Source of the DNA: Nemertoderma westbladi
Lineage: Eukaryota; Animalia; Xenacoelomorpha
NCBI GenBank assembly: GCA_032718475.1
Contig: JAUCBJ010003180.1
Coordinates: 1-43,728 of the forward strand
Direction: 5' to 3'
DNA: 43,728 nucleotides
Both the position numbers and the translations under genes were made by a program. A model generated the notes under the pieces. That model was given only the letters and a program-made list of their open reading frames with translations, did no database searches and was not told the origin of the DNA. Of this stretch, positions 2,028 through 35,598 are shown piece by piece. How positions within the stretch are numbered: the first letter of the stretch is position 1; the number at the start of each line of letters is the position of its first letter.

Positions 2028-2324
2028 GCCCACTTTGAAAAGCTCCTCAGTAATGACAGGGTATTGCCTGATAAGTTTATAGAAGTAAAAGTGTCTGAGT
2101 CTGTACTCCCAGATATTCCCATTGGCGATATCTCCTTTGCAGAAGTGAAGGCTGCTGCAAAGAGCATTAAGACCAATTGTGCCAGTGGAGTAGATGGTAA
2201 TCCCCCTGAGGTCTTTAAAATACCTGAGTGTTTAAAGCTCATCTATCCCATCATAGTAGACATGTACCGAACAACAAGGGTCCCACAAGAAATAAAAACA
2301 AATAAGTTGGTGCCAGTTCCCAAG
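2028..2324 (+). mobile_element. RTE-clade LINE fragment (linker/RT N-terminus), left half, interrupted by PA EVE
   Basis: Translates ...AAKSIKTNCASGVDGNPPEVFK...NKLVPVPK. It is near-identical to the minus-strand RTE sequence at about 18350-19010. Confidence 0.85.
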
Positions 2325-4476
2325 TAAAACACAACATATCTCTCGAATGGAGATTTATTTACTAGTAAATAACACAAATACTATTACAGTTTTAAATCGT
2401 TGGAACGATATCGTTAATCTGTGGTAGCAGAGATTTGTTGTATTGATCAGCGAGATAGAGAACCATTGGGTTCTGTATTATGGATTCGCTACATTTAGCC
2501 TCGGATCTCTCCCCTGGCAGCTGTACAACCAATCTCCCGTTGATGGTGGCACAGCCCATGATGTAAATCCTACGAAAATTTGCTAAAAAGCCCTCCAACT
2601 CATTATTGTTACACACAGCCTCAAAATATTTTCGGTGTGAATTAGTTTAGCGATGCCCTCTAACTTAGTTAGGGTACTAGGTAGATACTCTGCCCAATTT
2701 GTTATACCATCGGATTCGATTAGCTGCATGGCAAGGCAAAAGAGTGGATAATACTCGCAGTTTGTATACGGATTCTAGACAGACCACGATTATGTCTGAC
2801 TTTAACAGGCCATATCCCCAGTCAATAACAAATAACTGATATATCAGCCCTCACGCCATCTTCCGGCTCCTTGTAATGGAATATCGTACAATCGTGGTAA
2901 ACCTCTTTGGCTTTTATAGCAGCAGAACGACTAACCATCTGAAACACAACAAGGGGTAATTTCGCTGAGTCACTTGTTAAATGTGCTGGGCACTTTATTA
3001 CGGCCCCATGGAGCATTTGGGTACTCTCGGTTCCCACACCTTCAGCAGTAATTATAGGCAATACCACAACCCCATCATTTTGGTTGTACATGTATGAGGC
3101 GACTGGGCGTAACATCGCCTCATACATGCTTATGAACTCGTCCCCTATGCTTGGGCTAAATGTCGAAAGTATTTGGTCGCTTATATTAATGGCCTCATCA
3201 TCAACAGTATTGTACGATTTACGTCCTATAGACGGGGGTGTCCCTTCGGGATTGGCGCAGCCGAGATAGGATACAAATTCCTCTATTATAGGGTCAGCTT
3301 TAGCTGACGGTATTGTGAAATTATGAAGCGTCATCCCCTCGTCGATGAAGACTCGCTTTCTAGATTCTTTTGCGCGTCCGACGCCAAATAATTTCTTCTC
3401 TGCTCTAGACAGTAGATCGTTCGACCTTCTTGGCTCTTTAATGTTGTTCACCCAATAAGGTAAATACCTTCGTACAGTATCCAGATTAGGAACTAGACGC
3501 GATAATAGATTCTCACAAGCCTTTATGTTTGTTGTGTTGGTCTTTAAGGGTGCCTTCTTCATTCCGAGTGGGAACATTGTCTTCCATTTAATTTGACACC
3601 CCTCATTAAGCGGGGTTTTATTGGCATGCGTTAATAGATCGAAAGATTTCCTAGGAGTGTACATACTTTGGAGTGCAATTCGAAGATATTCATTCTTCAG
3701 ATCCATCCTCTTAGCCAGGCACCTTGGGGTCTCCTTGGTTGGGTCTACGGTCTGTTGTTTAGTAGTGGTAGCACTTCTTTAGGCATCTCAAGAACCTGCG
3801 GGACCTCATTGGCCCGGGCTGTAATACGTATCCGTGCACAGTCATAGTCTGACAGCTGCAGTTTGATTTTAATGAGTGCATCCTTGATATATGAGATCTG
3901 CTGGTTGTTTAACGAGTCCACATCGCCGGCCCATAATTTCCGGCTTAAAGAAATCGACAGCTATTATAGCAGTGATGTTCCTCACGCCTTTAACTATCAA
4001 TGTCTCTAGTTTTTGGTTGTAGGACCGTGTTGAATTCTCCACATAGGATATTGCCACCTCTATCAATTGTGGCTCGACCTCCAATTGTGCAAGAACTTTG
4101 TTCCTATTGTATTCCGTCCCATTGTCGATGAGCCCCTTTTTGATCAAATCAGGCATGTAATCCATTAGTCTTTCTTCCCATCCCGGAGGAGTATATAGCC
4201 GACGCGTTGAAATAGATGTCCCTCTGTCAAGACCTTCTAACACAACATATTCATTGACTATATGTCCTTTCTCCAGACTACCTTTTATCGTAAAAGAGTC
4301 ATGTATTTGAGAGCACACTATGTAATGAACGCACCACATCCACTTCATAAGGGACTGCTGCTCCTCGTTCCCCCTAAACCACCCTGGTCGGGTGGTGTCC
4401 GGAATTAGTGTAAGAATGCCAGCAGGTAAGGTGCTGAGTAGTTTAGATATGTTTTAATTAACCTCTTGCTATTGCT
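2325..4476 (-). pseudogene. PA: Endogenous orthomyxovirus-like PA (polymerase acidic) segment, copy 1, near full length, decayed
   Basis: ORFs 3869-4348, 2822-3706 and 2392-2616 are consecutive pieces. Endonuclease motifs WCVH / VLEGLDR / YMPDL / IEVAIS / YNQK match influenza H41, IIEGRDR (E80), FLPDL (D108), FIEIGV (E119) and K134. HGAVIKCPAHLTSD resembles YGFIIKGRSHLRND. The C-terminal ELEGFLANFRR...ESIIQNPMVLYLADQYN resembles QLEGFSAESRK...ECLINDPWVLLNASWFN. The start codon is mutated to ATA (4448-4450), with frameshifts near 3930, 3760 and 2620-2830. Confidence 0.9.
4460..4476 (-). promoter_or_regulatory. Viral segment terminus (cRNA/mRNA 5' end, promoter arm) of PA copy 1
   Basis: AGCAATAGCAAGAGGTT begins 26 nt upstream of the former start codon. 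It is identical in copy 2 (37196-37212), where homology stops at the same base, and it resembles influenza AGCRAAAGCAGG / AGCAGAAGCAGAG. Confidence 0.8.
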
Positions 4477-4491
4477 GGGTAATTAATTATG

Positions 4492-4774
4492 CCCAAGAAG
4501 GGCAACCTAACACTATATGGTTCTTTTCGGGGAATCTCATTGATCTCGATTGCTGCAAAGCTATACAATAGGATTCTATTAAATCGCATCAGGGATCCCA
4601 TTGAGAGACTGCTCCGTGGAAATTAGAATGGGTTCCGTAAAGGTCGTGGGACCATGGAGCCCATTTTGGCACTTAGAAGGATAATTGAAGAATTGTCAAA
4701 AAAGAAAGACAGGCATCTGGCTGTTATCTTTGTTTTTGGCACTTAGAAGGATAATTGAAGAATTGTCAAAAAAG
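4492..4774 (+). mobile_element. RTE-clade LINE fragment, right half (RT start), with terminal 41-bp duplication
   Basis: PKKGNLTLYGSFRGISLISIAAKLYNRILLNRIRDPIERLLRGN*NGFRKGRGTMEPILALRRIIEE continues the 2028-2324 piece. Bases 4664-4704 are repeated at 4734-4774. Confidence 0.85.
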
Positions 4775-7096: not shown

Positions 7097-9372
7097 TCCC
7101 ACCCCCCTCAGTCCAAAACTTGGACGACTAAATGCTACTAAACACCACACTAAATCAAGGTGCCCCCTCTAGCAGACAGCATTTCCCTACAGCTCTCCTG
7201 TAGGTTTTCCTGTCTTTCGCACCTATCTTGCCACCTATACGCACTTCTACCGATCGGACTCTTCCGTCCTCATCGGAGAAGTGCCCATAACTCTCGCCAA
7301 CCGCCATTGGTTGTTGATGATGGTATCATCCGTGATGATCACGAGATCCCACTCTCTTAACTCTCTGTTCGTGTTCCTCCACTTGCTTCTTCTATGAAGC
7401 GTGGGTAGGTATTCCTCAACCCACCTCCTCCAATACTCTGCGCTTATCGCCTTAGCGACTTTCCAACTCTGGCGGGAGTGTATGTCATCTGGGTCTACAC
7501 CCCGCATATCGATGGTCGCTGGCCTTTCCATTAGAAAATGGCTGGGCGTCAGCACATCTAGTGACTCAGGGTCATCATTCTCCGGATATAGCGGTCTGCT
7601 ATTAATGATACCCTCACACTTCGCAAGTACTGTTCTCAGGACGTCCTCCATAACCATATGGGTGTTCATCAACTTCGTCATAAGACGCTTCGAACTACCC
7701 ACGAGTCTCTCAACGCATCCTAGTGTATGCGGTGCATACGGTGTCCTCCTCTCCCACTTTACTTGTCGTCGTCTCATGGCTGCCCTGACTTCCTCCCCTT
7801 CTAAGACGTCCAAGGCCTCTGCCATCTCGTTCTCCGCTCCCACAAAGTTGGTTCCGTTGTCGGAGTATATTACTGCGATCGTCCCACCTTTGCGGTCTCT
7901 GAACCTCTCTAAGGCATTAATGAATGCCGATGCGGTTGCATCTTGGGCGAGTTCTATCCCTACCGCCTGCGTGTTATTGCATACAAAGATGATACTGTAG
8001 CGTTTCTCCGTGTGCCGCATCACCTTGATCTTTATCAGCCTGAACATGTCCACACCGCAATGCGTAAATGGCGGGTCGTGCTGTCTTACCCTACTCGCCG
8101 GTAGTGGTGCCATCTCCTGTATGGCTCGCTCCTTCTTCGCTCGTCGGCAGGTTTGGCACTGCCCCACTACCGCTTTTACCTTCTTCCTCAACTGTTTGAC
8201 CCAAAAGTTCCTCCGTATTTCCGTAAGGGTTCGGTTGGTGCCCCCGTGCAATATCGACTTGTGGGAGTCCCATATAATCTGGTGGACTATTGGCGATCCT
8301 GTGGGAATGATGATGGGTTTCGGTGGTACGACTATGCTGTTGTTGTATCCCACCCTAGAGTTCATTACTAGAATCCCGTCGTCATTAAGTTGTGGCGACA
8401 GCGTGATCAGCTCGCTGTCCCGTCGAAGATGCTGTTGTTTACCGACGCGTTCCACCTCGTTGCCATAGTTCTTCCGTTGTTCATAGCGGATTACTGCTTT
8501 GGCCGCTCCTTCCAGATCTATTGTTGTCCTAATCTTCATGTCTTTGCCAACTCCCCTGAGGAAATTCCCGAAGGCTCTCCAGTACGCCACTAATTTCTTG
8601 GTCTTGTACCAACTAGAGCTGTAGCTGAGGAGTTTATCCGTTGGGTTATCGCACAGTTCTCCTGGTTTTGGTTGCACGTCCCTTATCTCCCTCACCATCT
8701 GGGAGTATATCTCTTCTCCCTCTGAATCTCCTTCTTCATCCTCCAATACTGCTTCTCCTGAGCCCGGGTCCACCTTTCTCATCGGCGGCCAGGCCTCCCT
8801 GTCGCTCAGAAACTGTGGCCCGTGTTGCCACAATACTTCCTTTTTTAAGAAAGTGTGGCATGCCACGCCCCTCGATAACAAGTCCGCTGGATTCTCGTCC
8901 GTTGGGCAGTAGTGCCACCTTTCTAATTCTGTGGTCGCCCTTATTTCGTCCACCCTATTTGCGACGAATATAGGGTATCTCGTCTTCTCATTATGTAACC
9001 AGCCAAGTACTACCGTGGAATCCGTCCATTAGTGTGTCTCCACTATGTTGGGAATAGCGTCCATTAAGTAGGCTGTGGCCCTAACTCCTAGTCTCGCTGC
9101 TGTTAACTCGAGCTTCGGAACCGATGCTGAATCTGGTGGCGTTGACTTCGCCTCGCTGAAGGCAAGTCTGGGTTTGTGAGGCCCCTCTCGTTGTACTAAA
9201 TAGAGTGCCGCTCCGTATGTCTCTAGTGACGCATCGGAGAACATGTGCAGATCCAGATTCGTCATGTCCCCATCCGGGAAATACACTCGTGGCATGCTGT
9301 ATGTTCCCATATGCTCCAAACCTTCTGTCCACTTACACCACTGTTTCCTGATCTCTTCTGGTACCTCTACGT
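7097..9372 (-). mobile_element. BEL/Pao LTR retrotransposon A, 3' part (RNase H, integrase, PPT)
   Basis: RNase H motifs LHMFSDASLETYGA...VPKLELTAA...WTDS...WHYCPTDENPADLLSRG. Integrase motifs H-x3-H GG...CQTC, CGVDMF, IYSDNGTNFVGA, GCVERLV and a GPY/F-type tail ending RRAVGKCCLLEGAP* (stop 7155-7157). A purine tract lies at 7097-7109; sequence to about 6870 may be a partial 3' LTR. Confidence 0.92.
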
Positions 9373-11922
9373 TAGGGAGTGTCAAAAAATTTTTATTTTC
9401 GATAATAAAGTTTTCCTATCAGAAATGGGATGCCAAATTTATTAAAAATAACTACAAAACAAATGAAAACTTTTAATTTTTACATTTGACCCCCGCACGA
9501 GCCAACTTTGTTTCGAACGTTTTTTCGAAAATTTAATTTTTTGGAAATTTTTTTCCTTTGATATTTCAACTTACCCATATTTTATAGCATTCACGGTTTA
9601 TTAGTTATGTGTAAGAAATTATAATTTTCCAATTTCACATATATTCTACCCCCGCACCTAGCCACCAAAGTAGGTAGTCGCTTACTCAACAAATAATAGG
9701 CTTATCTGCAATATTATAATATTAAGCAGGAAATTTGAAACGGAAACGTTTCTGATTTATTCATAAAACGAAATAGTAATGTGCACCGGTAGGCCTATGC
9801 CTTTTCATACTTCACTACTAACTAATGTGCTAGTGTCTTACGTAGAGTAAATTAGATCTGTCAAACTAATTGTTAATAATTATTACTATGCTGCGATCTA
9901 AATCTACTTATGATTTTTTTGGTGTCTCATTAGAATTAAAGGGCTCGGTTTTACCAACCGGATTACAATGTATAAATGTTTCTGCGCGAGCAGAAAGTCA
10001 ATGGGGTCACAAATACAGACGAGGAATGTCGTAGTTGCGCTGCTTCAGTTCTTCAAATTTGGGCAATGGCAGGAATTCCGGCAGTTTCCTCGGTGACTCG
10101 TCTTGGTAGTCGCATCAAGGAACTCTTTGATCGTAGTCGTAAACTTAAAGAAATTCCCGTTTCTCGCAGAACCAATTTGGCGGTCAAACAACAGTTTGCC
10201 AAATATGAAGCGGAATTGTCTAAACTATTGGATGTGGCCGTTTGTAAATGCTATTTTGAAAGTAAATGTCTGTGTAAGCCGAACGACAAAGTCCCTGAAT
10301 GTGAACGAAACTTCTTATTAGATCAACGCGGTCAACGAATAATGATAATTTCCAATGCGGTAGATGTTACTGAATCGAAAATACGAGCGCAAAGGAGGAA
10401 GCGTAATGAATGTTCTATGTCTGGAGTCTCCCATATTAGTTGCGTATCCCTGGGCGATAGTGCTATTTTAGACAGTGGTACAGATAGCGATAATAATGAA
10501 GCAAATTCTGAATTATCCTGTTGCGAAAACTCATTGGAGAAGGTAATATTATACCAACCTACAACATCCACTCCAATTTCTAAAAGACTTCGTCTAACAA
10601 ACGTTGCAGAAATCTCTGATAGGTATAATCTTAGTAATCGCGCTGCTGCTGCAGTTTACAATTCAGCAATATGTGACTCCGGGTCATCGGCAGATATTGT
10701 TGATCATAATAAGATCAGAAGAGAGAGGCAGAAACTTAGACAAAATCTACAAATCGGATGCGGTTTAATTCAGCCCATTGGCTTGTATTTTGATGGACGT
10801 AAAGACCCCACCTTAACTGATGGAGGGCGGCAGATAATTAAAGAAGGGCATTTCGTGCTTGTTGGGGAACCTGGCTCTGCCTATTTAGGCCACGTGGCTC
10901 CAGCGACAGGAGCATCAGCTGATGTTACTTCTGCTATAATGGACTTCATCGATTCTAGGTTGGTAAGTTGTTGATATACTAATGTACCAGTATATATACT
11001 ATGTAGTAAATAAATATTGTAAATAAATAAATAAATATGTTGGTATGTTGGTGATATACGAATGTATGCTGTAGTAAATAAATATTGTATATAAATAAAT
11101 AAAAAAGTAAATACGAAATTAAAATTCGGAATGTAGGCTACTTTTAAAGTTTTAATCTAAAATCTAGAAACGTATAAATATATAAATAATTATATAAGTC
11201 AGTGTAAATGTGAAATGAAAATATGGACGTCGGACGTTACAAATGTATGTATATACTGGTTGGTACTTACTGAAATAATAAACGTACCTATAGAGGCCTA
11301 TAATGTATAGGCCTATAATAGGCGTATATATTTAGGCGCATTAAACTCAAACTGAAATGAACTACCGAAAAATCTAAATACAGTAGGCAATAGGAAAAGT
11401 TATGTAGAGGTATAACGGTATTTATTATTTAAAAATTATTGTTTACATTGATTTTTTTCAGTTGGATGCGATAGCACCAGCGTTAATACTGGCTGGAAAA
11501 ACGGAATAATTGTGAACCTCGAACGGAAACTAGAAACACCACTTCAACATGCGATATGCCTCCTTCACATCAACGAGCTTCCACTTCGACATCTGATAAT
11601 AGAACTTGACGGTACTACAACAGGAAGCAACACATTTTCGGGTCCAGTTGGGAAACTCCTTCATAATTGTCACAAATTTAGCCCTGTTATATTTGAGCCT
11701 ATTATCAATAATAATTTTCCCGAACTTGAACAGTCTGTTTCTTCCAAACTTTCGAGTGATCAGCGATATTTATTTGATATCTGCAATGCAGTAATATCTG
11801 GAGAACTATGTGAATCAACCGCCAATAAAACTCCAGGACCTATCAGTCACTAGGACTGCGTCAAGAATCCTTCGGCTTTATGTATCTACTGAAGATCCAT
11901 CTGATGTACTTTCCCGTCTTTC

Positions 11923-14517: not shown

Positions 14518-15301
14518 TTAATAGCTAATAAATCTCTTACTGAGCTACAAATGTTACTGGAGAAAGGTCCTATGAAATGGGAAATTCCATGTCATTCCCA
14601 GAATGTGGAACAATTGGTTCAATGCGTGTCAACTGTATCCAAACGAGTCTGCGGTGTTAAGGAGAGAGATGGCTACATTAGAACTCAATTATCTAGTCGC
14701 CAAACAATGCCAAAATTTAATTCTAAGAAAGATTTTAAGCTAAAGATAAACCTTAATATCCCCAGTAGTACAGATGGTGTTTAGTTTGAGTTAATGGATT
14801 CTGATTTTTCTTATATTATTGTGTTGGTGTTGATTAATAAAGCATCTTGATAGTACTGACCTCGTCCAGACTAATTACAATGTTCACAGACCCAGTTCTA
14901 CTGTTTATTATCACAAATTTTAGGGATAAGTTGGTTAAATATACACAATGACAAACATAATGACATAAATAACGATATTTTTTTGCGTATTCGTGAAAAG
15001 CAACCTACTTTGGTGGCTAGGTGCGGGGGTAGAACATATATGAAATTGTAAAATTATCGTTTCTTACAAATAACTAACTAACCAAGAATGCTATAAAATA
15101 TGGGAAAGTTGAAATATAAAAGGAAAAAAATTTCATAAAAAATTTAATTTTTGAAAAAACGTTTGAAACAAAGTTTGCTTGTGCGGGGGTCAAATGTAAA
15201 AATAAAATGTTTTCATTTGTTTTGAAGTTATTTTTAATGAATTTGGCATCCCATTTACGATAGGAAAATTTAATTATCGAAAATTTTTTTGACACACCCT
15301 A

Positions 15302-16985
15302 CTCTACGTCCCACTCATCCTTCAGTTTGTATACTTTCTTAAGTATCTGTCTTCCCGTGACTAGTAGTGGGGATGCTAGGCCTAGGGGATTGTATATCCT
15401 TGCTATGTACGACACATAGCCCCTCTTTGTGTGGATGTCTGCGCCCTCCTGGCTCAACTGGTACTTCAGTTCATCCGTCTCTCTGTTCCATACGATTCCC
15501 AGCGCCTTTTGTTGGGACTCTATTCTCTTGTTCGCCATGTCCTGCCCCTTTGCTGTTGTGGGATTATCCATGGTCGATCCTGGTCTCTCATCTTTTATCG
15601 CCTCGATAAATTCCTTCGAACTGGATTGGAATTTGGTTAGGTTGAAGCCGGATCCTTTAAGGATGTCGTGAACCTCGCACCCTGTGTCCAGTAGCTCCTT
15701 AACCGTATTTCCAGACTCCATCCCGTCGTCTACGTAGAAGCCGCGTCGAATCATATTGACGGCTCTAACACTGTATTTATCTTTCTTTCCCTTTACTGTG
15801 TCTCTTACGGCCGTAGTCGTCGTAAATGAAGACGACTTGGCTCCCATATTCTGTACTATCATCTTGTACATCAGTATTGTCGACGGGTCCACGTCGCCGT
15901 TGTACCATAGGAAGCGTTGACTGTCGCTATCCTCTTCCGTCACACGGACTTGGTTGAACATGCCTTCTATGTCGCAGGTGAAGGCGTGTTTCCCGTTTCT
16001 AAATCTAAGTAGGACCTTCTAGCAGATAGTCATTTAGGCATTTTCCATTGGTCTTTGCCGACGCATCCACTACCATCCGCAGTTTACCTTTCTTCGGATC
16101 TAAAGCCACGTGGAGTGGCAGGTAATATGTCCTGTCCGTGTTCGGTTCGTCGACCGGTAACTCCACGGCCCATCCTTTCTCGACGTACTTTCTGATTGTC
16201 TTGTGGATGTACTCATTCTTTTCGGGGCTCCGTTTTAACGTCTGTTTCAACTTACGAAGCCTCGTGAGCACCATCCCTTTATTATCGGGCAGTGGTAGGT
16301 TTGGTAGCTTCCATTCCATTCCTATGGTATACCGCCCCTCTTCGCATCTCATAGACTCCTCTACGCTCTGCTGGGCCTGCTTGTCTTCTACCGAGGACCC
16401 GACCCCGGTTTCCTTTAGCCCCTCAAAATCTTGCCTGAGCAGTCTCTTGAGCTGTTCCTCCGCTCTCTCATCCTCTATTTCTTGCATAGTTCCCGCAAAC
16501 ATGCATCCCGATGTCTCCGACATCCTAAATGGTATCTTACTCTTAATTGGGCCGCTCAGTGTCCACCCGAACGGTGTCAAAATAGCCACCGGGTCACACT
16601 GCCTGTCTTCGCCGAAGACCGTTTGCATTCTCTCGTGGGCAATCCATTCCTACTATGATGGATACCTTCCTAACGTCCACCTCTGGGATTGAGAAGTCGA
16701 TATCATCCAGGTATTTATATTGTTCGACCTCGATGTTGGTTGGCCGCCTGGCATTGATATTTATTGACTCTATCACTTGGATGGGGTCGATGGTCGCCCC
16801 GTAGTCGCATCCTGGTGCCACCGCTGCAATCGCGCACCGTCCGGTCCTCATCTCCAGGACCTCATCTTTGCTAGAGATTGATGTTACCGCCATTCTACTT
16901 GGCCTCGTTCTCAATCCTATATCTTCGGCCACCCAATCCTCGACTAATGTGAAGGCAGCTCCACTGTCGACCAGCATCAGTGTGG
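15302..16985 (-). mobile_element. BEL/Pao LTR retrotransposon A, 5' part of pol (protease and RT)
   Basis: Protease LVDSGA, then AILTPFGWTLSGP, YYLPLH...KLRMVVDAS...LNDYLLEGP, DIEGMFNQV and FYVDD. It is contiguous with 7097-9372 once the hAT element is removed. Confidence 0.9.
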
Positions 16986-18340
16986 TCACAAAATATGAAC
17001 GGGAGATTATAAAGTTCTCGATGGCTGGTAGAGAATCTTCCCATTTCATCCACTTCTTTAATAATTCTCCCTTAAGTGGATCGTCCCATGAGTGGTTTTC
17101 AAGCCACATTTGTTGTACTAAACTCCGAGCAATCAATATAACTGGGCTAATAAATCCCAATGGATCGAAATAAGTGCTCAGTATACTTAAACAAATCCGC
17201 TTAGTCCGAACTGGATTATCTCGTTGTTTTAGTTGGAAAAACAGGATATCTCTTTCTGTGTCCCATTTCAAACCAAGGGTCTTAGTTTCTGGGAGATCAT
17301 CTTTTATTAGATCAAGATCTTTCGCTCCTCGATCTTCTACCGGGATCGACTCCAGAAACTCACGGGAGTTGCTGGTGAATTTAGTTAATCGAAATCCACC
17401 TCTTGTTAAGCACTCTACCGTTCCTTTAGCAATGTTAATGGCTTCTTCGACTGATGGAAGGGACTTTAGATTGTCGTCCATGTATATATCCCTCTTGATG
17501 TTGTCAATCACCTCTTTAGAGAAGGCGTCTCGGTTGTCATCCGCAGTGGTGCGCACCACGGAACAGGCGTTTGAAGGGCTCGAGATTATCCCAAAAGCCT
17601 GGATGGTCATCCAGTACTCCACCGGTTTCTGGTTGAGTTCTCCTTCAGGCCACCACAGAAATCGTAGGCTTTCTCGATCTCTATCCAGCGCCTTGACTTG
17701 TAAGAACATGCCTTCTATATCTGAGGCGAAAGCAATTGAATATTGTCTTAATCTTAAAAGTATTCCCAACAAGGATTGGAGTAAGTTGGGTCCGGGTAAC
17801 AATTCAGAATTAAGGGATTGGCCCACATAGAGGGCGGAGCCGTCAAACACCACTCGTACTTCATGGGGTTTACCGGGTTTGGGAACATAATGGTAAGTTA
17901 AATAATACGCTCTCTCAGTTATAGGTGTTTCTTCCGGTACTAGCTCCGCATATCCCTTGCTAATAAACTTCTTCAACTGCGTTTGATACATTTCTTTAGC
18001 TGAAGAATTTGCCGTAAGGCGTCGATGTAGTTGAGCAATTCTTTTCTCCGCCAAGGGTCTGTTGTTTACGAACTTTGGTTCTCGCTTTCGGAAAGGTAGA
18101 CCGATCTCATATCTACCTTGATCTTTAAGAAAACGTGTAGTTGTCTCTTGGATTTGCTTGGCTCTATCTTCCTCTACCGATAGGGCCTTATCGTAGGAAT
18201 TGGGCTCTACAGCCTCTTGAGTAAAGAATCGTACGGCGTGTTCGTCCCGAGTCTTGGCATTATAACGTTCAATGACTGGGTATATATATGTCATAATTAG
18301 TAATTGATTTTGGTTTGTAAATGTGCGGCAATGCAGTTGT
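16986..18340 (-). mobile_element. Fragment of a second, distinct BEL/Pao family (RT domain)
   Basis: RYEIGLPF...VRVVFDGSA...SLNSELLPGPNL...DIEGMFLQV...IYMDD...FDPLGFISP...ISRSYF. It is clearly different in sequence from the RT at 15302-16300. Confidence 0.85.
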
Positions 18341-18466
18341 TCCCCGAAAATTATCCGAAAAGAACCATAGAGTGTTAGGTTGCCCTTCTTGGGAACTGGC
18401 ACCAACTTATTTGTTTTCATTTCTTGTGGGACTCTTGTTGTTCAGTACATTTCTACTATGATGGGA

Positions 18467-18776: not shown

Positions 18777-19097
18777 ACTATGATGGGATAGATGAGCTTT
18801 AAACACTCAGGTATTTTAAAGGCCTCAGGGGGAACACCATCTACTCCACTGGCACGATTGGTCTTAATGCTCTTTGCAGCAGCCTTCACTTCTGCAATGG
18901 AGATATCGCCAATGGGAATATCTGGGAGTACAGACTCAGACACTTTTACTTCTATAAAGTTATTAGGCAATACCCTGTCATTGTTGAGGAGCTTTTCAAA
19001 GTGGGCCTTCCAACTGATCGGATGGTGATTCAGCCTTAACCTTGGTGGTTGGTTGGCTTTTCCAGTAAGCAAGTTGATCGATTTCCATGCCTGGGAT

Positions 19098-19724
19098 ACT
19101 ACTACTACTACTAGGATCGGCATGCTGCATTGCAGCTGCATTTTTAAGAATGCTGTGCCGGCTTGTCAACAAAATTGCACTGCCACAACTCCCTATCACC
19201 CATGACATTTGCTAGATCATCCGCATCTTCAAGGCCAGTGTCCTTTAAGATGCGTCTCAAGAAAGTCATGGGCTGCCCACCATGCTTATTCACTCCATGA
19301 GGCTGCCAAAGTACAAAATTATGCACTGGCTGGTCCTCACAGCGAAAGAAATGTCCTGCAAAGCGGAGGCGATTTTGTTCTAGTGTCAAGCTTGGGGGAA
19401 CCAATGAGACACCTCCAATGTTATATAGTGTCTGGTTGGAGATGTGTGCATTCTACTTGACACAATGAACCCGGTGTGGCATTCTTGTGTAGGTGCCATC
19501 CAGAGATTTGGGGTCCTCAGCAGTTAGAGCCCAGCATGGACTCCCGTAGAGGAGTACTGGAACTACTGCTGCTCTAAATAATCGGACCTTAAGTTTCCGA
19601 TTAATTATTGGTGACTTCCAAATCCTGGAAAGTCTATTCAAGGCTGCCCATGCCTTTCCCTTACGTATTCGAAGGTCCTCACCTGACTTCCGGATCCATG
19701 ATCCCAGGTAACAGAAGTCGTCCA
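19098..19724 (-). mobile_element. 5'-truncated RTE copy with (TAG)n tail
   Basis: VDDFCYLGSWI...KAWAAL...VLLYGS...RLRFAGH C-terminus with a (TAG)n tail at about 19098-19113. A 12-bp TSD CATGCCTGGGAT lies at 19086-19097 and 19725-19736. Confidence 0.85.
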
Positions 19725-22314
19725 CATGCCTGGGATGATTGCCTGCTGTCGTCAGCATCATTGATGGCATCAACCTGTTGGTTTATTAGCTCCTGTAGAT
19801 TATCAGAGTACTGCCTGTTCAGGGACCTAGATGCAGCCTTAACTGCATTCTTGGCCATGTAGTCTGTTTGAGTGGGGACTCTTTCTGTGCCTTAGAGGTA
19901 CTTTCGGCACTTCTGAATTTTGTTGTCAGTCCAGGGGGCCCTTTTCCTGTTTCGAGGGTATACAGGAACTGTTTCAGCAGCTACTAACTAAACTGCTTCT
20001 GTGAAGGCAGTAGCCCTCACAGTGATCTGCCGCCTCAGAGGCAAGAACCTCATACATGATGCTCAGCTGTAGTGTGAAGCTGGATCTCACACTTGGCTGT
20101 TGCAACAGAGAGGACCAGTCATGCCGCAGCAAGGCGGATTTCGTTGTTCTGCTAGCATGCAGACTAAGTCTTACCTTGGCCACAATAAGGCAGTGATCAC
20201 TAGAGAAGGGTCGAAGTGTAAATGCATTACAGTCTTGTATAGAGCTCCTGTATTTCCTACGAAACAGGATATGGTCTATCTGGGACTTGTTACCACTGGG
20301 TCCACTATGACTATGAGTCCATAGCTTTCCAGTTCGCTTCTTGAACTGGGTTCCAGCCGAAATCAATCCATTTCCAGAGATAAAAAAAATCCTGAAGATG
20401 GATGGAATTTCGGTTAACACTATTGCTATTGACCCAGGGCAATTTAGGTGATTGATGCAGACTTCATTAAAGTCTCCCAGGAATGTTAAGAATGCATGTT
20501 GATCCACTCCATCAGTAGCTGCTTGTAGATTGTGGTAGAAATTGTCCACCCCCTCTACAGTGGAAACTCTAGTTGGAGAGTAGCACACAATCAGAACCAC
20601 CTTAGGAAACTTCTTAGCCAGTCTTCCAGAACATGAGAAGTGTCAACGGATGATGCGGTTACATATTTGGTCTATTTTCTCCAATGCTGCATGTGCAGTT
20701 GGATTAATCAATAGACCAATTAATTCCATCCTTGCCACTATCATCTGCTGTGTTCGGTTGATTGGTGGATCCGTAGGTAGTATATGTGAAGGAGGGTGTA
20801 GGGATGGGTGTAACGATGTGTTGGAAAAACTATTTTTGTTCCCCCTGTTAATCTCCCTGTTATACAATTTTCGACACAGCCGGGAATACGCAGTTTTCGG
20901 CGTAGCATTCTTGTGAATGTGCCATCCAGAGATTTGGTGTCCTCAGCAGTTAGAGCCCAGCATGGACTCCCGTAGAGGAGTACTGGAACTACTGCTGCTC
21001 TAAATAATCGGACCTTAAGTTTCCGATTAATTATCGGTGACTTCCAAATCCTGGAAAGTCTATTCAAGGCTGCCCATGCCTTTCCCTTACGTATTCGGAG
21101 GTCCTCACCTGACTTCCGGATCCATGATCCCAGGTAACAGAAGTCGTCCACATGCCTGGGATGATTGCTTGCTGTCGTCAGCATCATTAATGGCATCAAC
21201 CTGTTGGTTTATTAGCTCCTGTAGATTATCAGAGTACTGCCTGTTCAGGGACCTAGATGCAGCCTTAACTGCATTCTTGGCCACTGTAGTCTGTTTGAGT
21301 CGGGACTCTTTCTGTGCCTTAGAGGTCATTTCGGCACTTCTGAATTTAGTTGTCAGTCCAGGGGGCCCTTTTCCTGTTTCGAGGGTATACAGGAACTGTT
21401 TCAGCAGCTACTAACTAAACTGCTTCTGTGAAGGCAGTAGCCCTCACAGTGATCTGCCGCCTCAGAGGCAAGAACCTCATACCTGTTGCTCAGCTGTAGT
21501 GTGAAGCTGGATCTCACACTTGGCTGGTGCAACAGAGAGGACCAGTCATGCCGCGGCAAGGCAGATTTTGTTGTTCTGCTAGCATGCAGACTAAGTCTTA
21601 CCTTGGCCACAATAAGGCAGTGATCACTGGAGAAGGGTCGAAGTGTAAATGCATTACAGTCTTGTATAGAGCTCCTGTATTTCCTATGAAACAGGATATG
21701 GTCTATCTGGGACTTGTTACCACTGGGTCCACTATGAGTCCATAGCTTTCCAGTTCGCTTCTTGAACTGGGTTCCAGCCGAAATCAATCCATTTCCAGAG
21801 ATAAAATCCTGAAGATGGACAGAATTTCGGTTAACACTATTGCTATAGACCCAGGGCGATGTAGGTGATTGATGCAGACTTGCATTAAAGTCTCCCAGGA
21901 ATGTTAAGAATGCATGTTCATCCACTCCATCAGTAGCTGCTTGTAGATTGTGGTAGAAATTGTCCACCCCCTCTACAGTGGCAACACTAGTTGGAGAGTA
22001 GCACACAATCAGAACCACCTTAGGAAACTTCTTAGCCAGTCTTCCAGAACATGAGAAGTGTCAACGGATGATGCGGTTAGAGATTTGGTCTATTTTCTCC
22101 AATGCTGCATGTGCAGTTGGATTAATCAATAGACCAATTAATTCCACCATTGCCACTATCATCTGCTGTGTTCGGTTGATTGGTGGATCCGTAGGTAGTA
22201 TATGTGAAGGAGGGTGTAGGAATGGGTGTGACGATGTGTCGGAAAAACTATTTTTGTTCCCCCTGTTTATCTCCCTGTTATACAATTTTCAACACAGCCG
22301 GGAATTCGCAGTTT
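19480..22314. repeat. Tandem duplication, two units of about 1.42 kb
   Basis: About 19480-20897 matches about 20905-22314 (ORF starts 20600 and 22018, offset 1418). Each unit contains nested RTE pieces plus about 260 bp of unassigned DNA. Confidence 0.9.
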
Positions 22315-24960: not shown

Positions 24961-24971
24961 AGAATATCCAA

Positions 24972-27900
24972 TAGGGTGTAGTGAATTTTCGAAATTTCTG
25001 ATTTTCGTTCCAGAACTCAGTCAAAATATGAGGTTGGATATCAATAGCAACTATGCCATATATTTTTTCAATCTGAAAAGTAGAAATCATGTCTCCGTGC
25101 CACTGAAATTTTCAAATTAATTAACAAAAATGTCATATTTGTCTAAATCTAGATGGCTCCAGAAAGAGAACCAATTATCGGATTTTGTAGAAATCCTGTT
25201 TTTTGGAATCTATGGACAGAGTAGAATGCCATAGGAAGACACAAAATTAATTTTGGCAGAGTTGAAAAAATTTTATTTTTTAAAAATTTCAACTTTTTCT
25301 GAATTGTTGTTGGAATGTTTCTGAAATGGTAAATTGCAAATTAGGTAATAGCAAAAAAAAGGTTAATATGTGACAAAATACTTCAGTTGTGATGTTTTTA
25401 GAATATAATTAATTGTTTTCAGAAGACAAATGCTCTAATATAAGTTCAATGTTGTTAGGATACACCGTTTATGAATGCTAGGATTAAGACTATCTCATGT
25501 TATTTTCAGAATACAAATTGTTTCTTAGTGTTAAACGCTTTCCGTTGTTTCCTGGCATCAATCCTCGAAAGTATTAGTTTATCTCTCTCATTACTCCCAA
25601 CAACTTCCATCGACACTTCAGTCACGATTCGGACCATCCTTTCAACAACCTGAGTGTGACATGGGTAGTCAAGATTAGGAAGATCGAGATCTTTAGAAAC
25701 AAATATGCTACTGAGATCACAATCTAAAATATCCTTAGTCAATGGTGGTTCAGTGATGATGTTAACAGTCCAATCAATCAGACTGATGTAATCATTGGCT
25801 TCAAAATTGATCAATGGAGGCTCCAGCTTTCGAACATTGCTTGATAACTGGATGGAGTTTAAAACCTGAGCTTTCTTAATCTTGCATACAGCAAGCTTTC
25901 GAATGTGAACTCGCTGATCCATTAACATGGATATCAGTAGATTTTCAGAGTGTGCAAAGAATGCATTACGTTGGATTGTTGAATCGACTGTAGCTTTATG
26001 TTCACCATCGAGGTAGCGGGTCCACTTTACAAGTTGAAAAACGTTTAGTTATCCATCTTTAATACTATTGTGGCATTTAATCAGGAACCACATCGGAGAA
26101 TACACATTAATGATATATTTAACAATAACAGTAAGTCCCTCACTAGGTGAATGATCTGATATATATATGCGACATATACGATTTGCGGTGGTAACCCAGT
26201 TTGAATGACTGAGCTTACCAGGATCAAGTCGAGCCAATCTTTCATCACAATGTCCATCAATGATCGCGCATGTAATTAAATAAAGATATTTTTGATCCGT
26301 TGACAATTCCTTGATTACTGATTGTGGAAGTTTTGTGAAGGTTTCTGATGTGATCGGCATATATTCAATCACATCCATTCTTGGTAGATTACCATTTGCA
26401 ATTCGGTCTCCAATTAAACCTTTGAATGCTTTAGGACCTGAAGTAGGCCCATCAACTAAGGTAAATAGGTGGCGCAGGGGGAGTTCATTCATATGCAACA
26501 TGCAGATAGACCACTGTAAAGGTCTTTCAAGTTTCAATTCTAACAAATGAATCACACCAGCATGAACTCCAGTATTTAAAGGAGTACCATCACAACCAAC
26601 AACTACAATATCTGACAAAGACAAAGACCTTTCCTGGAAGAAATATAGTATTGATGTTAATATATCCTCGGCTCGGCCTCCCTTGGGACTAACATGACTA
26701 AGATAGCATCCTCCTGGTTCTGTCACCATTACATAATGTTCTTCTAATTTGGATTTTACATGGTTAGATGTGGATTCATCTTTTATTAGAGTTAAATCCT
26801 TTCGGCCATCAAAATATAATCCAGTGATTGATTCTGACCGAGAAAGTGATGATTCAAATATAGATGATCGACGTTTTGCTCGTTTTCTTCTGATATTGTG
26901 ATGATCAACAACATCTTTTGATGAGAAGCTCACCCCTTTTATGTCTTGAGATGTTGCTGAAATAATTGCAGCTGCAGCGCGATCGGGAATTGCATATCTA
27001 TCAGCTTCCCTACAAGCAGAAATGTACAATAATTCCTATTTTGAGATGTACTGGAATGGCTGGATGTTGATGGTTCAGGAGGAAATACATCCATCGGACT
27101 TTGATCTTCAGGTGGGTTAGAAGATTCAGTTACCGTAGAAGATTTGGCAACCCTTTCCTGTTCGATACACTGCCTCTTATTTTGAGCTTCCTCCCTTTCC
27201 GCCCTGCGTTCATATTTATTATGTTTTTCAGTAGCAATCCTTGCTGCATTACCATCTATACCTCCAATATGTAATAAACGTCCTGCTCTCTGATCCTCCA
27301 GAAAATCTACTTCAGCATCATTTGGTTCCTTGGCAATTTCAAATAATTTCTTAAAATGTTTCTGATATTCTACTAGTCGCTCAGAGTAAAACGTCTCCAA
27401 TTCTCGCGCCTTGGGTACTTTGCTAACATCATCACGAATATTGTCCAACTCACTCAAGATTTTCTTAGTCACTCCTATTAGGGTATAGGTGGGAATGCTG
27501 GCACGGATATAAACAGAAATAACATCCTTGGCAGCTAATTATGCAACATAGGATAGTTTTGGGTTGGAAGGAATTGATGCTTGCAACAATTTAAAATGAT
27601 GTAGAACATCACCAATAGTCGGAAGTTGGGTCAGTGGCAACTGTGTTGGACTCCCAAATAATGAAGTGTTAACCTTTTGACGAGTTCCTTTCGACATTTT
27701 AGAAATATAATTAAATCGTCAGAATTTAAAAGTCCTATATACTAGTCTATAGTTTACAGCAGTAGTAGCAGTTTAGTTTTTAATGCATACCGGTACAAAT
27801 CATATGAATGTCATAATGTCATAAATTAATTACACACTAAAGTATGTACTACTAAAGAATAAATGTGAAAGTAAAAGTAAATAAGTGTATGCCTAGCCCT

Positions 27901-28545
27901 TGTCCGGTACTAACATACAGATAGATTTTAGGACAGAAATAATAAATGCTTGTTGGGTTGATTTATCCAGACATAGAGGAGGGAATTTTGAAATCTATGA
28001 ATCAAAAGTTGTCATATTAAACGCTAGTTAGCGAGCTGTCATAAACTGTGTGTTTTCTTTAAACTATTCAATAAATTTAACTAATAAATTATTAATTAAA
28101 TCAAATTAATTAAGGCCTATTGGCAGTTGTATTCTAAAAACTCTTAGTTATTATATTCTATGAACTTCATTATCGTATTATAAGTACTTGTATATTTATT
28201 GGCATTTATTTATTTTGCAATTTAAATTTTTCCATTTTTGGAAAAATGTTAAAATTTTGAAAAAATAAAATTTTTTGAACTCGGCCAAATTTAATTAACT
28301 GTCTTCCTATGGCATTCTACTCTGTCCATAGATTCAAAAAAACATAACTTTATTTATTTACCTTACTTTTTATTTAAACAAATATGACATTTTTGTTAAT
28401 TAATTTGAAAATTTCAGTGGCATGGAGACATGACTTCTACTTTTCAGATTGAAAAAATCTTTTGCATTGTTGCTATTGATATCCAACCTCATATTTTGAC
28501 TGAGTTCTTCAAAAATCAGAAATTTCGAAAATTTACTACATCCTA
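24972..28545 (-). mobile_element. Second hATm-like DNA transposon
   Basis: Imperfect TIRs of about 320 bp start TAGG(G/A)TGTAGT(G/A)AATTTTCGAAATTTCTGATTTT and enclose a transposase. No matching 8-bp TSD is visible. Confidence 0.85.
25506..27697 (-). pseudogene. hATm-like transposase, intronless, with stops and frameshifts
   Basis: MSKGTRQ...QLPTIGDVL, FLEDQR, GLYFDGRKD, GCDGTPLNTG, WSICMLHMNELPLRHL and YPCHTQVVERMV. It is homologous to 9888-14784. Confidence 0.88.
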
Positions 28546-29799
28546 TTGAGTAACATTTGTTTCATGCTATTTACACATTTACTTCTAAACGTTTATTACA
28601 TGCCGCCCGCTTGGACAAAATAACATGAAAAATATATATTTATGGACGTGTCGCAAACGTATTTTCAAACGTTTGCCATGTTCAATAAAAATGTGATATA
28701 AACGTTAAAATTACAAGAAATTGTTATCAGGACAGGCTGGAAGCAGGTAAGATGTTTGAAATCTCTGTATTATGAACAGTAATATTAGGAAAGACACAGT
28801 CGAAACTCAGTAGGTGGAAATATGATACAGCTGTGGTGATGGAAACTTGCTTTAGAGCTATTAGTTAATGTTTGCCACTTGCAGATTAAAACTTGAGAGA
28901 ACAATTTACAGCAGAGTTGATGTTGAGTACAGTGGGTTGAGAAGAATTTAAATGGAAAGATGATGCCATATTCTGCTGAATTAACTGAGTGGAGGTACTT
29001 CTGGTGATCTTCATACATATGCAGATAAGGTTAGTGCGGTAGGTCCCTCTAGTGGGTGTAGTAATACAAATAGAACAGGTGTCATGGATTCAGTCGACTG
29101 TGGGCTTATTAGCCCATGCTCGATAGTCATGGAAGATCGATGTGATTTTGCTGCTGCTCTAAATTCAGCAAAAACGACTCTTTTTGCAAATTCTCCGAAT
29201 TCAAAATGGCCACGAAAGTGTGCCATATTGGAATCGGACAGTGAGCCAGAAGAAGATGCAATAATTGTGGATAATATTGTAGAACCATCTTATTGCTTTA
29301 AAGAAGGTACCGGTACAACAAAGGGGAATCTACAGAGGGAGGGGTACTATTAAAGATTCAGTGTGGATAGTTCCACTGAACCCTTACGATGGAAATCATC
29401 TTTAGAGCAGCAGCAGAAGACATCAAAAAAATGTATAGTAGATCAGTTGTATAAGGTCTCAAGAATGGCCTATCAAATACAAAAGGCCCAAAACAACGTT
29501 GAAATGGGTTTCAAGTGATTCCATTCAAATTCAACAAATCTCGGTAGCATTCATTTCATACTTTGAGTTTCAGCTTATGGAGACAGGATCCAATCGGACA
29601 TCTTTACTGCAGTTTGATAGTTTAAAACACACCCTGAAGGCCTTAGGAGATACCGCTCCAAGGTAGTCCGTGTCTGGGAAGCTACATAATCCCAAGCGAG
29701 GGAGATAGACTCCCTTCAGAAATTTCATGATATAAAACATGCGGATGCCTTAGAAGTGATAAATAAAAATGACATTTGAGATGCAGTACTTAAGGCACA

Positions 29800-30260: not shown

Positions 30261-30815
30261 TGCAGGATGCTCATGATATGTTCGAGGGCCACTCTGCCCT
30301 TCACAAGGTCCTTAATAATAATACCAGAGCTGGGCTGGGGAGTGCTACATCCCTTGCTAACACTACAGCTGCATCTACCTCTGCTGCCATATCCAATAGT
30401 GCCACATCTAGTATGATTTCAAGCGAAGGAATTAATTCTGTATCAATCCAGAAATCACCATGTTCCCCACTTAAATCGCCATCACTGACAAAAAAAATGT
30501 CTGATTTTATGAGTTAAACGCTGGGGACTCCCCTTGTGAGCTAAACAGTGTTTACTTTCTTAAATCCGATCGATTTCCAGCTCTAGGCTCTTTATCAAGG
30601 TTTCAAATAATATAAATCAACAATACATAATATTTAATATTTAGAGCGTACGTACGTAGGTACCGGTATTAGTTATTAGTTATTTTTCGGGGGTAGAACC
30701 AACCCACGAGAGCGATCTGGGGAGGGGGCTGGCAACCTCGACGCCGATTGAGTCCGAACGGACCCCTAATAGACCTAGTGTAGCTAGGAACCTGTTTGGG
30801 GGTGGGACAGAGTCG

Positions 30816-33039
30816 TTGGCGGAAGTTAACCTAACGTGTGCGAGCTCCTACGAACGGGATTCGGATCGAAGCGGGGAGGAGGGGAATCGAGGGAACTCCA
30901 CCCCATGGAGGGTTCCAGAGATCGGACGGAGATACGAGGTGGATCGACGGCGAGTTCCGGAGGCGAGATCTATGCCGTTCCTGGAGCGGACGACTCATCC
31001 GCATGCGGACCTACCGCGTTTGAACTTTAGACCGTACGCTGTACCGTATAAGTGTCGGTATGTGACAGGAGCATGTCAGAACGATGATGTAGAACGCTTC
31101 ATCGCGGAATTACATAACGTTGCGGATCGGGACGCTTCCGAACCGAAACGTAAGCCGAATTTGACAGCAAATCAACGCGGGGAACTGAAGAAGTTGAAAC
31201 GGGACTCAACTCTAGCGGTAGTCCGAGGGGACAAGACGGGCAATGTAATCATTCTGGACGAAGATATTAGGAGACGGGAAATTAGTCGAGCACTGGAGGA
31301 TAATTCAACGTATGAGAAGTTACTTTTCGACCCGACAAATAAGTTTTCTGCAGAGCTGAAACGACTTTTAAAGGTCAACAACATCGGCGATAAGGAGCTA
31401 CAAGATTATATAGTGCCTAAGAGTCCCGCGATGGGCTATGTCTTCACGCTATTTAAGGATCACAAAGAACGCTCTGAGTGGATAGATTGGGGAGGAGGGA
31501 TGCTCGTACCGAAAGCGAGACTGATCATTTCAGCAACAGGAACAGTGTCCGAGCGCGCCGCTCAGTTTCTGAATTCAATTATCCAACCGATTTTGGAGAG
31601 GATGCCGCACTACATTCCGGATTCCGCCGCAGCGAGGAGAAGCTTACCGGTCGAACCACACGAGCAGGTGACGTTTCTGGCACTGGACGTGAGGGATATG
31701 TATCCTTCGGTGGATTTTAGTTTAGCGACTGATGCGATATCGGCCACTTTGAAGGAGAATCCAGACGTCATGGAGGACTCGGGGTATACAGTAGAGCAAA
31801 TTATTGTCTTACTACGATACGTCATTACTCATACATATTTTTGTGCAGAAGGGGGTTTCTATTTATTAATCAAGGGGCTAGCGATGGGGGGGCCGGCGGG
31901 GAAGTCGATTGCAGTGTTGACGGTAAATAGAGTACATATGCATATTAGTTTGATTACTTTAGTAGGCACTACCTTTTTTAAGACATTTGTGGACGACGGG
32001 GAGGGAATTTTTAATAGAGTATTAACAGAGGAAGAGAAGGGTGATATTAGGGTTAGGTACAACTCTGGCAGTGGGGAGGTGTTTGGGCGGGACTCTATTC
32101 AGTTTACCATTGAGTTTTCGCATGATAAATCCACCTTTTTGGATTCAGATTTGTTTATTAGGGGAGGGGACAACCGTATAGGTACTGCTGTTCACTTTAA
32201 AACGTTATCCAAGAAATTGCCTATCCCCTACAGTAGTCACCATGACAACGCAGTCCTACAGGGCATTGTGAAGGGCCAGATCAAACGATTTTGGCGTTTG
32301 ACGGGAGGGGGGACAGCGTTTGTGTCCGCCAGGGACCGATATTTAACGGACTGTTGGGCGGTTGGGTACCCTGAGGAGGTTCTAGAGGGATTACGGGGGA
32401 GTAGCGGTGGTAGGGGGATGGTTACCCGAGGGGAAGCGAGTGACAGAGTACGGGTTTTCCTTCCAGTGGATGGGCGAGTGGGGGGCGTCATGAAACCAGT
32501 GGTGTCGAAGTTCAAGGAGACTTTGGACCTATGGGGATTGTCTGTGGGGATATCGACGAAGAGTGGGTTAAACTTAGAGAAAATACTAGTGAGGAAGAGG
32601 GACCGGACAAATTGGAGGGGGAACAGGGCGTGTGGCAGGCCTCGGTGTATGACCTGTTCATGGATTCTAGATAGAGAGGACAACGCCATGGGGGGATAAG
32701 ATTACGGGTGCGTTTGATTGTTCTACAAGTAATATACTGTATTTTATTTGCTGTAAAGTACATCCGGACTCTTATTACATTGGGCAAACGGAACAACGTC
32801 TCCGTGAGAGGATGAACACTCATAGATCTGTAATAAATAATTTTAGGTTAGCTGCTGTGCCGGAGTACAATGAACATGATGAGTTTCTGTTGGTGGAACA
32901 TTTTAGGCGGTGCGAGATGGGAGATATTTGTGTTACTGTGTTTAGGGGATATAGGAACGACGGGGATAGGGTGCATGGGGAGGCCAATTATATCCATCGG
33001 TATAAGCCTCCATTGAACAAGAGCCGACCGACCATTTGA
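30816..33039 (+). CDS. Penelope RT and GIY-YIG endonuclease (one frameshift in the G-run near 32690)
   Basis: GDKTGNVII, FKDHK, ARLIISA, LDVRDMYPS, GLAMGG, FVDD, FLD and SSHH motifs, then a CGRPRCMTC linker, then CSTSNILYFICC...YYIGQTEQRLRERMNTHR...EANYI...PPLN. The true start is uncertain. Confidence 0.88.
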
Positions 33040-33063
33040 CCTGTTTGTAACCGGGTGCAATAG

Positions 33064-33500
33064 TAGGAGTCATACTGTACATATATTGAAATGGGGGTGA
33101 TGAAGTACACGGGAATTCGCGGGGGGTATCTAGGGGTAGTGTTTATATGTGGGTTTTTTTTATATATTTTGTACTGGGCAACTGTCATACAGGGGGGATT
33201 TGTGGCGTTAGGAGTCATACCGTACATATATTCAAATGGGGGTGATGAAGTACACGGGAATTCGCGGGGGGAATCTAGGGGTAGTGTTTATATGTGTGAT
33301 TCCTTTTTTTATATATTTTGTACTGGGAACTGTCATACAGGGGGGATCTGTGGGGTTAGGAGTCATACTGTACATATATTGAAATGGGGGTATGAAGTAC
33401 ACGGGAATTCGCGGGGGAATCAAGGGGTAGTGTTTATATGTGTTTTTATATATTTTGTACTGGGCAAGTGTCATACAGGGGGGATTTGTGGGGTGTAGGT
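33064..33500. repeat. Three tandem copies of a unit of about 145-148 bp in the Penelope 3' region
   Basis: Units start TAGGAGTCATAC at 33064, 33209 and 33357, with a partial start at about 33557. Confidence 0.9.
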
Positions 33501-35425: not shown

Positions 35426-35598
35426 GTGACTGTCAGGTGGGGTAGGAGAAGGGCTGCCTCCAGCCAGGCGCTGGTGCGGGAGTGGTTGGGGTTCGTGGTT
35501 TGGTGAGTGCTGTACTGTACTGAACTGTCGTCAGGCCGTGATGCGCAGTTCACACAGTTATCGCGCCGCTCGTGGTCTGGTATATACTCCTTTCCGCT

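Follow-up and report, generated by a model that had tools for sequence, protein, structure and literature searches.

The window analysed here, a stretch of 43,728 nucleotides of Nemertoderma westbladi DNA, contains a copy of an orthomyxovirus-like PA segment that was inserted into an RTE-type retrotransposon, with a 6-bp target-site duplication and with 15 foreign nucleotides at the side that corresponds to the 5' end of the cRNA or mRNA. The locus is an orthomyxo-like PA endogenous viral element (EVE) made by retrotransposition, and the 15 nucleotides are only a candidate for a cap-snatched leader. Under this reading, they would be the 5' piece of a host RNA that was cut off by the virus polymerase and used as a primer, for which a probability of about 0.45 is estimated. 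This estimate, like the odds expressed below for junction filler and for a template jump, is the outcome of a weighing and was not computed.

The extra segment (4477-4491, minus strand) reads GGGTAATTAATTATG on the plus strand and CATAATTAATTACCC in mRNA sense. It is flanked by AGCAATAGCAAGAGG, which ends at 4476, and by CCCAAG at 4492-4497, and its location between the segment terminus and the right copy of the duplication, as described in the initial annotation, was confirmed from the window sequence. Its A+T content is 73 %, and its length of 15 nucleotides becomes 16 when the terminal A is counted. No word of at least 11 nucleotides from the 15-mer occurs a second time in the window. Public DNA contigs with the 15 nucleotides and one or both flanks were found in the runs X1, X2 and X3. 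Over the spanning contigs, the one from X1, which is possibly the window's own source, contains 0 other letters, that from X2 contains 2 (3687 and 3941, none in 4477-4491), and that from X3 contains 11, all listed ones of which lie outside 4477-4491. X2 and X3 represent one sample, which makes two samples in total with X1. Since the 15 nucleotides are unchanged in the contigs of X1 and of X2/X3, they are no assembly slip.

The flanks of the insert are two halves of one high-copy retrotransposon. The left fragment (2028-2324, plus strand) matches the copy at 18.4-19.0 kb in 221/230 and 75/79 positions, the right one (4492-4734, plus strand) shows an identity of 41/44, and the flanks are 93-96 % identical to another RTE copy. 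The element is presumably of the RTE type, judging by features typical of such elements and by the initial annotation. The Pfam endonuclease match lies on a related RTE copy, not on the flanking fragment itself, and a named relative of the RTE is from a fish. An empty site in another copy of the retrotransposon (18350-18466, minus strand) reads through without the insert. The corresponding joint from 2318 to 4492, which skips 2173 positions and has 6 ambiguous letters, is present in 6 contigs of X1, 10 of X2, 8 of X3 and 1 of X6, a total of 25 contigs over 4 runs among the joints listed. The six letters CCCAAG, found to the left (2319-2324) and to the right (4492-4497) of the insert on the plus strand, fit either side of this joint. 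Because the empty sites in the window and in the contigs read through, the 6-bp duplication, a hallmark of retrocopies when accompanied by an empty site, is real, and the 15 nucleotides do not belong to the RTE. The occurrence of these nucleotides in other RTE copies had been named as a possible refutation of a host leader; the empty sites, including those in the 25 contigs from 4 runs, do not contain them. A further RTE-type element (19090-22182, minus strand) contains a 1.42-kb tandem duplication and has a (TAG)n tail in place of poly(A), which indicates that an enzyme independent of tails may exist here.

Comparison with a second copy in the window and searches with PA families identify the insert (copy 1; 2325-4476, minus strand) as a 2.15 kb PA segment with its full coding span in a broken state. 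Its start codon is lost, two 1-nt frameshifts relative to copy 2 occur within 1.6 kb, and further stops are present in the 3' part. Copy 2 (35600-37212, minus strand) has 528 unbroken codons, is 3'-truncated, stems from a different virus strain and carries no obvious leader. A search of its frame against 1.84 billion representative proteins yielded 5 matches, 4 of them PA-like with identities of 26-30 %, and all 4 PA-like proteins match Flu_PA. A profile built from the five sequences matches Thogoto PA with an E-value of 7e-38 and also influenza A-D PA, and the C-terminal piece of copy 1 matches Flu_PA with an E-value of 0.004. Copy 2 alone gave no Pfam match and no PDB match as a single sequence, and a word-indexed protein search with it found 0 matches among 7,166 candidates. 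The single-sequence fold of copy 2 was unusable (pLDDT 32). The fold from five sequences was poor (pLDDT 44), and its Foldseek match to influenza PA (E-value 5e-7) is taken as supporting evidence only. The insert and copy 2 encode a PA of the orthomyxovirus type, with Thogoto and influenza PA as the best structural relatives. The nearest named relatives are the PA proteins of Xinjiang sediment orthomyxo-like virus 1 (E-value 8e-28) and Barns Ness dog whelk orthomyxo-like virus 1 (E-value 1.5e-8), both with an identity of 26-27 %, and the PA of the source virus is 25-30 % identical to its nearest database relatives.

In the N-terminal region, the columns of His, Glu-Gly, Glu-Val and Lys can be aligned with those of influenza B PA, and both copies keep them. 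The PD aspartate is present within the PD motif, yet HMMER placed it elsewhere. Since these endonuclease residues are kept in both copies, a functional nuclease for cap-snatching is probable in the source virus. The two copies are 69 % identical at the DNA level and 73-76 % identical at the protein level, and their differences are biased towards the third codon position (37/19/93 and 64/32/173 for the first, second and third positions). Judging by this pattern of divergence, they diverged as viruses and were integrated separately. At position 3475, the window allele does not contain a 21-nt in-frame stretch that is found in the allele of X2 and in copy 2, which shows that copy 1 is polymorphic. 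Two contigs of more than 2.1 kb (2281 and 2191 nt) match the insert in several places with less than 90 % identity, and the listed differences of further PA contigs are mostly spaced by three.

Both PA copies lie on one strand of a transposon-dense stretch, an arrangement that might resemble a piRNA cluster. Pieces of Pao/BEL LTR retrotransposons are located at 7247-9028 and 15299-18441 (minus strand). A DNA transposon whose inverted ends are long and whose transposase is broken covers 24969-28548, and a related fragment lies at 9976-10974; the transposase has 275 relatives, with 38-53 % identity among the matches listed. Between 176-nt inverted repeats at 30502-34285, which include a 145-nt tandem repeat (33064-33499), lies a 679-aa frame without a Pfam match that by eye presumably resembles a Penelope-type reverse transcriptase. 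A 759-aa frame at 40955-43234 (plus strand), with no Pfam match at 1e-3, is taken by eye to resemble a DNA polymerase B of the Maverick/Polinton type, and a 358-aa frame (39327-40403, plus strand) lies beside it.

The terminus of the segment, which corresponds to the 5' end of the cRNA or mRNA (4460-4476, minus strand), is identical over 17 nucleotides to that of copy 2 (37196-37212), where the flank differs. The terminus of these copies reads AGCAATAGC. A terminus that starts with AGC is consequently shared over these 17 nucleotides by independent strains whose copies are otherwise 69 % identical. The terminus pattern gave 12 raw matches in viral contigs. For the segment ends of relatives, an alignment search returned 0 of 122 and a metagenome search returned 15 matches and 0 loci, and a string search of the literature with the terminus gave nothing relevant.

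With the insert alone as reference, contigs of X1 (9), X2 (8) and X3 (17) could be aligned; no contig of X5 covers the insert, which is not taken as evidence. Besides copy 1, at least five X1 contigs align to the terminus, none of which is the copy 2 of the window. Their alignments end at 4475, 4476, 4477, 4478 and 4478, where the end at 4477 and one of the ends at 4478 were derived by depth arithmetic, with agreement to the decimal for lengths of 19 and 21 letters. With the two copies in the window, at least seven PA lineages are present in one genome. Where shown, the letters that follow the terminus in the other copies are unlike those of copy 1 and unlike one another; GG directly follows it in two of them. 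As the flanks of the other terminus-bearing copies differ, the 15-mer is not the viral end. An extension shared with other EVEs, which would have made the 15 nucleotides viral, was not observed, the six other copies having at most 0-2 letters in common with copy 1. The 15 nucleotides are neither RTE nor viral end.

The junction of copy 1 reads CCC before the terminal A, and a CA end is favoured by influenza. Among the 6 copies with this terminal A, 4 have a C directly before it (p 0.016 with C at 19.5 %); when copy 1 is left out, the count is 3 of 5 (p 0.054). CC directly before the A is found in 3 of 7 copies, or in 2 of 6 without copy 1 (p 0.02), and the seventh copy aligns only to 4475, i.e. 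without the terminal A. These counts were read from alignment ends and depth arithmetic and are a hint only, and detection of the short pieces (19 and 21 nt) is favoured by agreement with the GG of copy 1. The initial annotation had recommended a search for heterogeneous leaders of 10-15 nt on other EVEs. The flanks differ, and the C in 4 of 6 copies may reflect an ascertainment bias; leader lengths are not readable from alignment ends, which give no insertion boundary, and the flanks of the other copies are not callable as leaders.

At copy 2, the motif ACTAGC is found at both junctions (35596-35601 and 37210-37215), the right one overlapping the viral AGC. Should this repeat represent a 6-bp duplication, copy 2 would be without a leader, and priming may have occurred at the 3' end of the vRNA. 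The flanks of copy 2 have GC contents of 0.37 vs 0.58, which speaks against one split element, and one flank starts with AGTAA. The possibility that the upstream flank of copy 2 is a second viral segment is not supported, as it has no Pfam match in 3 frames and no long frame that closes before the junction.

At the 3' junction of the insert, poly(A), which is the tail criterion for an mRNA retrocopy, is absent. A second terminus-like motif starting with AGTAA (2323-2334, plus strand) overlaps the left duplication by 2 nt and is without poly(T), and another at 2364 is the centre of a perfect 18-nt palindrome (2355-2372), one of 2 of such length in the window. AGTAA, with which the flank of copy 2 also begins, occurs 64 times in 43,724 window positions. 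Pairing with the 3' terminus amounts to 7.5 of 10 positions for the motif at 2323 and to 8.5 of 10 for that at 2364, and a pairing of at least 8.5/10 is reached at 734 of 43,713 window places. No U-run lies 16-22 nt from 2323 or 2364; U-runs were found 27-30 nt from 2364 and 32-34 and 36-38 nt from 2323. The missing poly(A) and the AGTAA terminus-like motifs suggest that the template was full-length, a genome or antigenome copy, and not polyadenylated. The stretch 2325-2400 contains a pair of similar terminus-like motifs separated by 41 nt, together with a 5-bp hairpin and the 18-nt palindrome. It is either a structured UTR or includes filler of about 39 nt past the true end.

If the 15 nucleotides are a leader, the virus polymerase would have cut the 5' piece from a host RNA and used it as the primer of a PA transcript. 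The leader would end in CCCA, with the A pairing with the template's terminal U, as is the case in influenza, and the 5' end of the donor RNA would read (C)ATAATTAATTACCC(A/G). A non-LTR reverse transcriptase would have primed at the left duplication by target-primed reverse transcription, copied the transcript from the 3' side up to the 5' end and continued through the leader, and the product would have become fixed in the genome. The template without poly(A) could have been a capped read-through RNA, a transcript of a virus without stuttering at a U-tract or an mRNA primed upstream of its tail. Such a special template, capped read-through or internally primed, is needed because poly(A) is missing, and it is an added assumption.

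Several observations support the leader reading. Non-viral sequence that is foreign to the RTE and to the viral end is located inside the duplication and exactly 5' of viral nucleotide 1, and the virus family appears to have a PA of the cap-snatching type. Extra 5' nucleotides occur in few L1/Alu insertions, whereas every transcript should carry a leader. The C that 4 of 6 copies show in front of the terminal A and the one copy without this A, both as in influenza, are a hint in the same direction. Against a leader stand the absence of poly(A) together with the terminus-like motifs at the other end, and a length of 15 nt (16 with the A) that exceeds the approximately 10-13 nt of influenza A, a range that may differ in this virus. 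The 18-nt palindrome at the opposite end is a hint of fold-back synthesis during the same event, and if the ACTAGC repeat of copy 2 is a duplication, that copy would be without a leader. The original proposal of an EVE copied from a viral mRNA with a host leader is partly supported, by the foreign 15 nucleotides and by the PA with endonuclease residues, while its mRNA step is weakened by the missing poly(A) and the terminus-like motifs.

A further point against the leader is that its first 10 nucleotides match the UTR next to them in inverted orientation at 9 of 10 positions, as had been stated before, and this is the basis of junction filler as the strongest alternative. In this scenario, a leaderless cRNA or vRNA was the template, and untemplated G's, a fold-back copy of about 10 nt of the 5' UTR, a slip and a join via a small RTE hairpin produced the 15 nucleotides. 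The UTR stretch at 4454-4463 (plus strand), 14-23 nt away, pairs 9/10 with 4477-4486 and encloses the 13 terminal nucleotides in a hairpin; in a second small hairpin (4490-4504, plus strand), the last 2 extra nucleotides and the CCC of the duplication pair with RTE positions 4500-4504. The two hairpins cover 12 of the 15 nucleotides; the folding z-score, about -2.3 to -2.6, counts rather against filler. When anchored at the junction, an inverted match of this quality is found for 287 of 87,426 window 15-mers and 84 of 20,000 shuffles (0.3-0.5 %). This value depends on the null model and ranges from 0.3 to 7 %, since an unanchored 10-nt inverted match arises by chance in 61-103 of 1,500 cases; the best exact inverted match is only 7 nt long and arises in 130-252 of 1,500. 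The match was also picked after the fact in AT-rich, palindromic sequence. Its single mismatch agrees with the age of the copy, as indicated by the two 1-nt frameshifts in 1.6 kb and the flank identity of 93-96 %. The fold-back point has no priming homology: the loop is 13 nt long, the terminal bases are unpaired, and the terminal GCT cannot pair beside the copied stretch. By eye, a short echo of the terminus in inverted orientation opens the flank of one other copy. Filler leaves the GG found in two further copies unexplained, and their next letters do not begin as an inverted UTR copy. Filler also accommodates the other end without poly(A), with its terminus-like motifs and its perfect palindrome, and untemplated additions at run-off are documented for R2 (PMC3774820). 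The snap-back alternative raised in the initial annotation scores about as well as the leader and is considered quite possible, if short of an even chance.

The reverse transcriptase could also have jumped from the 5' end of a leaderless cRNA onto the 3' end of an abundant cellular RNA, e.g. a tRNA ending in CCA, by single-base pairing, and then copied 15 nt of it. End-to-end template jumping is known for R2, the missing poly(A) agrees with it, and the CC found ahead of the junction A in 3 of 7 copies, or in 2 of 6 if copy 1 is excluded (p 0.02), would fit. Nuclear tRNA stems are unlike a sequence with 73 % A+T, as found in the 15-mer, ARAGORN detected no tRNA gene in the window, and one copy matches in only one G, which makes such a jump improbable. 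The GG after the terminus in two other copies could be taken as a sign that the 15 nucleotides belong to the virus end itself or to a variant of the RTE. The six other copies differ beyond 0-2 letters, the empty RTE sites are without the sequence, and no word of 11 nt or more recurs in the window. This reading is largely refuted and the least probable of all.

If the leader reading holds, its donor could in principle be a spliced leader. The match to nematode SL1 that had been pointed out is an exact match of 11 nt to SL1 positions 4-14 that ends at the junction, where a cut after A14, a plausible cut site, would fall. It was seen in 0 of 200,000 window draws and 56 of 200,000 shuffles, or about 0.008 when 30 SL consensus sequences are allowed for. 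While the match is as described, an SL-like donor is unsupported, as the first 5 nt of the 15-mer differ from the start of SL1, and so the 5' ends do not agree. None of 22 of the 30 SL consensus starts (PMC3795323 Table 1) begins alike, the relevant parts of PMC7986045 add nothing fitting, and literature matches to the exact string are irrelevant. The other copies are without the motif beyond CC, and an Rfam search of the window detected no SL RNA and no snRNA. The named relatives of the neighbouring transposase are from leech, insects, spider and snail, with no nematode among 120 of the 275 listed, most of which are nameless; this is not a test of the host. The SL1 match is regarded as a curiosity unless the host has an undescribed leader, and an SL1-like donor as a very improbable special case within the probability of the leader reading.

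Influenza A leaders have a length of about 10-13 nt with a slight preference for C at -2 and a stronger one for A at -1, and many influenza A mRNAs are without the terminal A (Koppstein et al. 2015, PMC4446424). Like them, the segment described here is foreign sequence 5' of viral nucleotide 1, has a CA junction and differs between copies. Unlike them, it is a single germ-line DNA record of 15-16 nt instead of about 10-13 and was read from DNA alone. Extra 5' nucleotides are present in 3.9-14.6 % of L1/Alu insertions (PMC2912911 Table 4), a rate that may not be that of RTE. In L1/Alu (PMC2912911) and R2 (PMC3774820), foreign nucleotides are likewise located between the duplication and the 5' end of the copied RNA; unlike in L1/Alu, the copied RNA here is of a kind for which a foreign leader of such a length is natural. 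Influenza A has capped RNAs that share the 3' end of the cRNA and are without poly(A) (Elshina et al., bioRxiv 2024.11.12.623191), and a capped cRNA of this kind would yield exactly a leader and a full 3' end without poly(A). Such RNA is described as an influenza A RNA only, and here it would have to be postulated with an uncertain 3' terminus.

Mammalian borna- and filovirus EVEs show a duplication and poly(A) (Katzourakis and Gifford 2010, PMC2987831). In its relevant passages, the same study describes no such hallmarks for insect EVEs and one orthomyxovirus EVE, and a host leader is unmentioned there. Like the borna- and filovirus EVEs, the insert is one viral transcript unit within a target-site duplication; unlike them, it has no poly(A) and comes from a segmented orthomyxo-like source. 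Divergent aquatic Articulavirales have been reported, without EVEs or termini in the pertinent sections (bioRxiv 2023.02.15.528772). A full-text literature search, with most subscription papers outside its scope, did not turn up any endogenous viral element described as carrying a cap-snatched leader.

The route by which RNA-virus sequences reach invertebrate germ lines, and the RNA species (mRNA, cRNA or vRNA) from which they derive, are mostly deduced from what is missing. If the leader reading is true, the retained leader would be positive evidence for a capped transcript as the template and, as far as the literature search shows, the first genomic record of cap-snatching. It would also demonstrate cap-snatching in a deep, uncultured orthomyxo-like lineage and reveal how long its primers were and which cut sites it preferred. 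An extended version of this reading, considered unlikely, is a fossil cap-snatching library in which several independent PA insertions of different strains each carry a different host primer that ends in C or CC before the terminal A, some of them derived from capped, non-polyadenylated transcripts. In that case, leader length, cut preference and donor RNAs of an uncultured virus would be readable from host DNA, and the donors would possibly include an undescribed spliced leader. Even if the 15 nucleotides are filler, the locus is unusually complete for an orthomyxovirus fossil: the PA segment is full-length, its end is intact, the duplication is clean, and there are at least six sister insertions.
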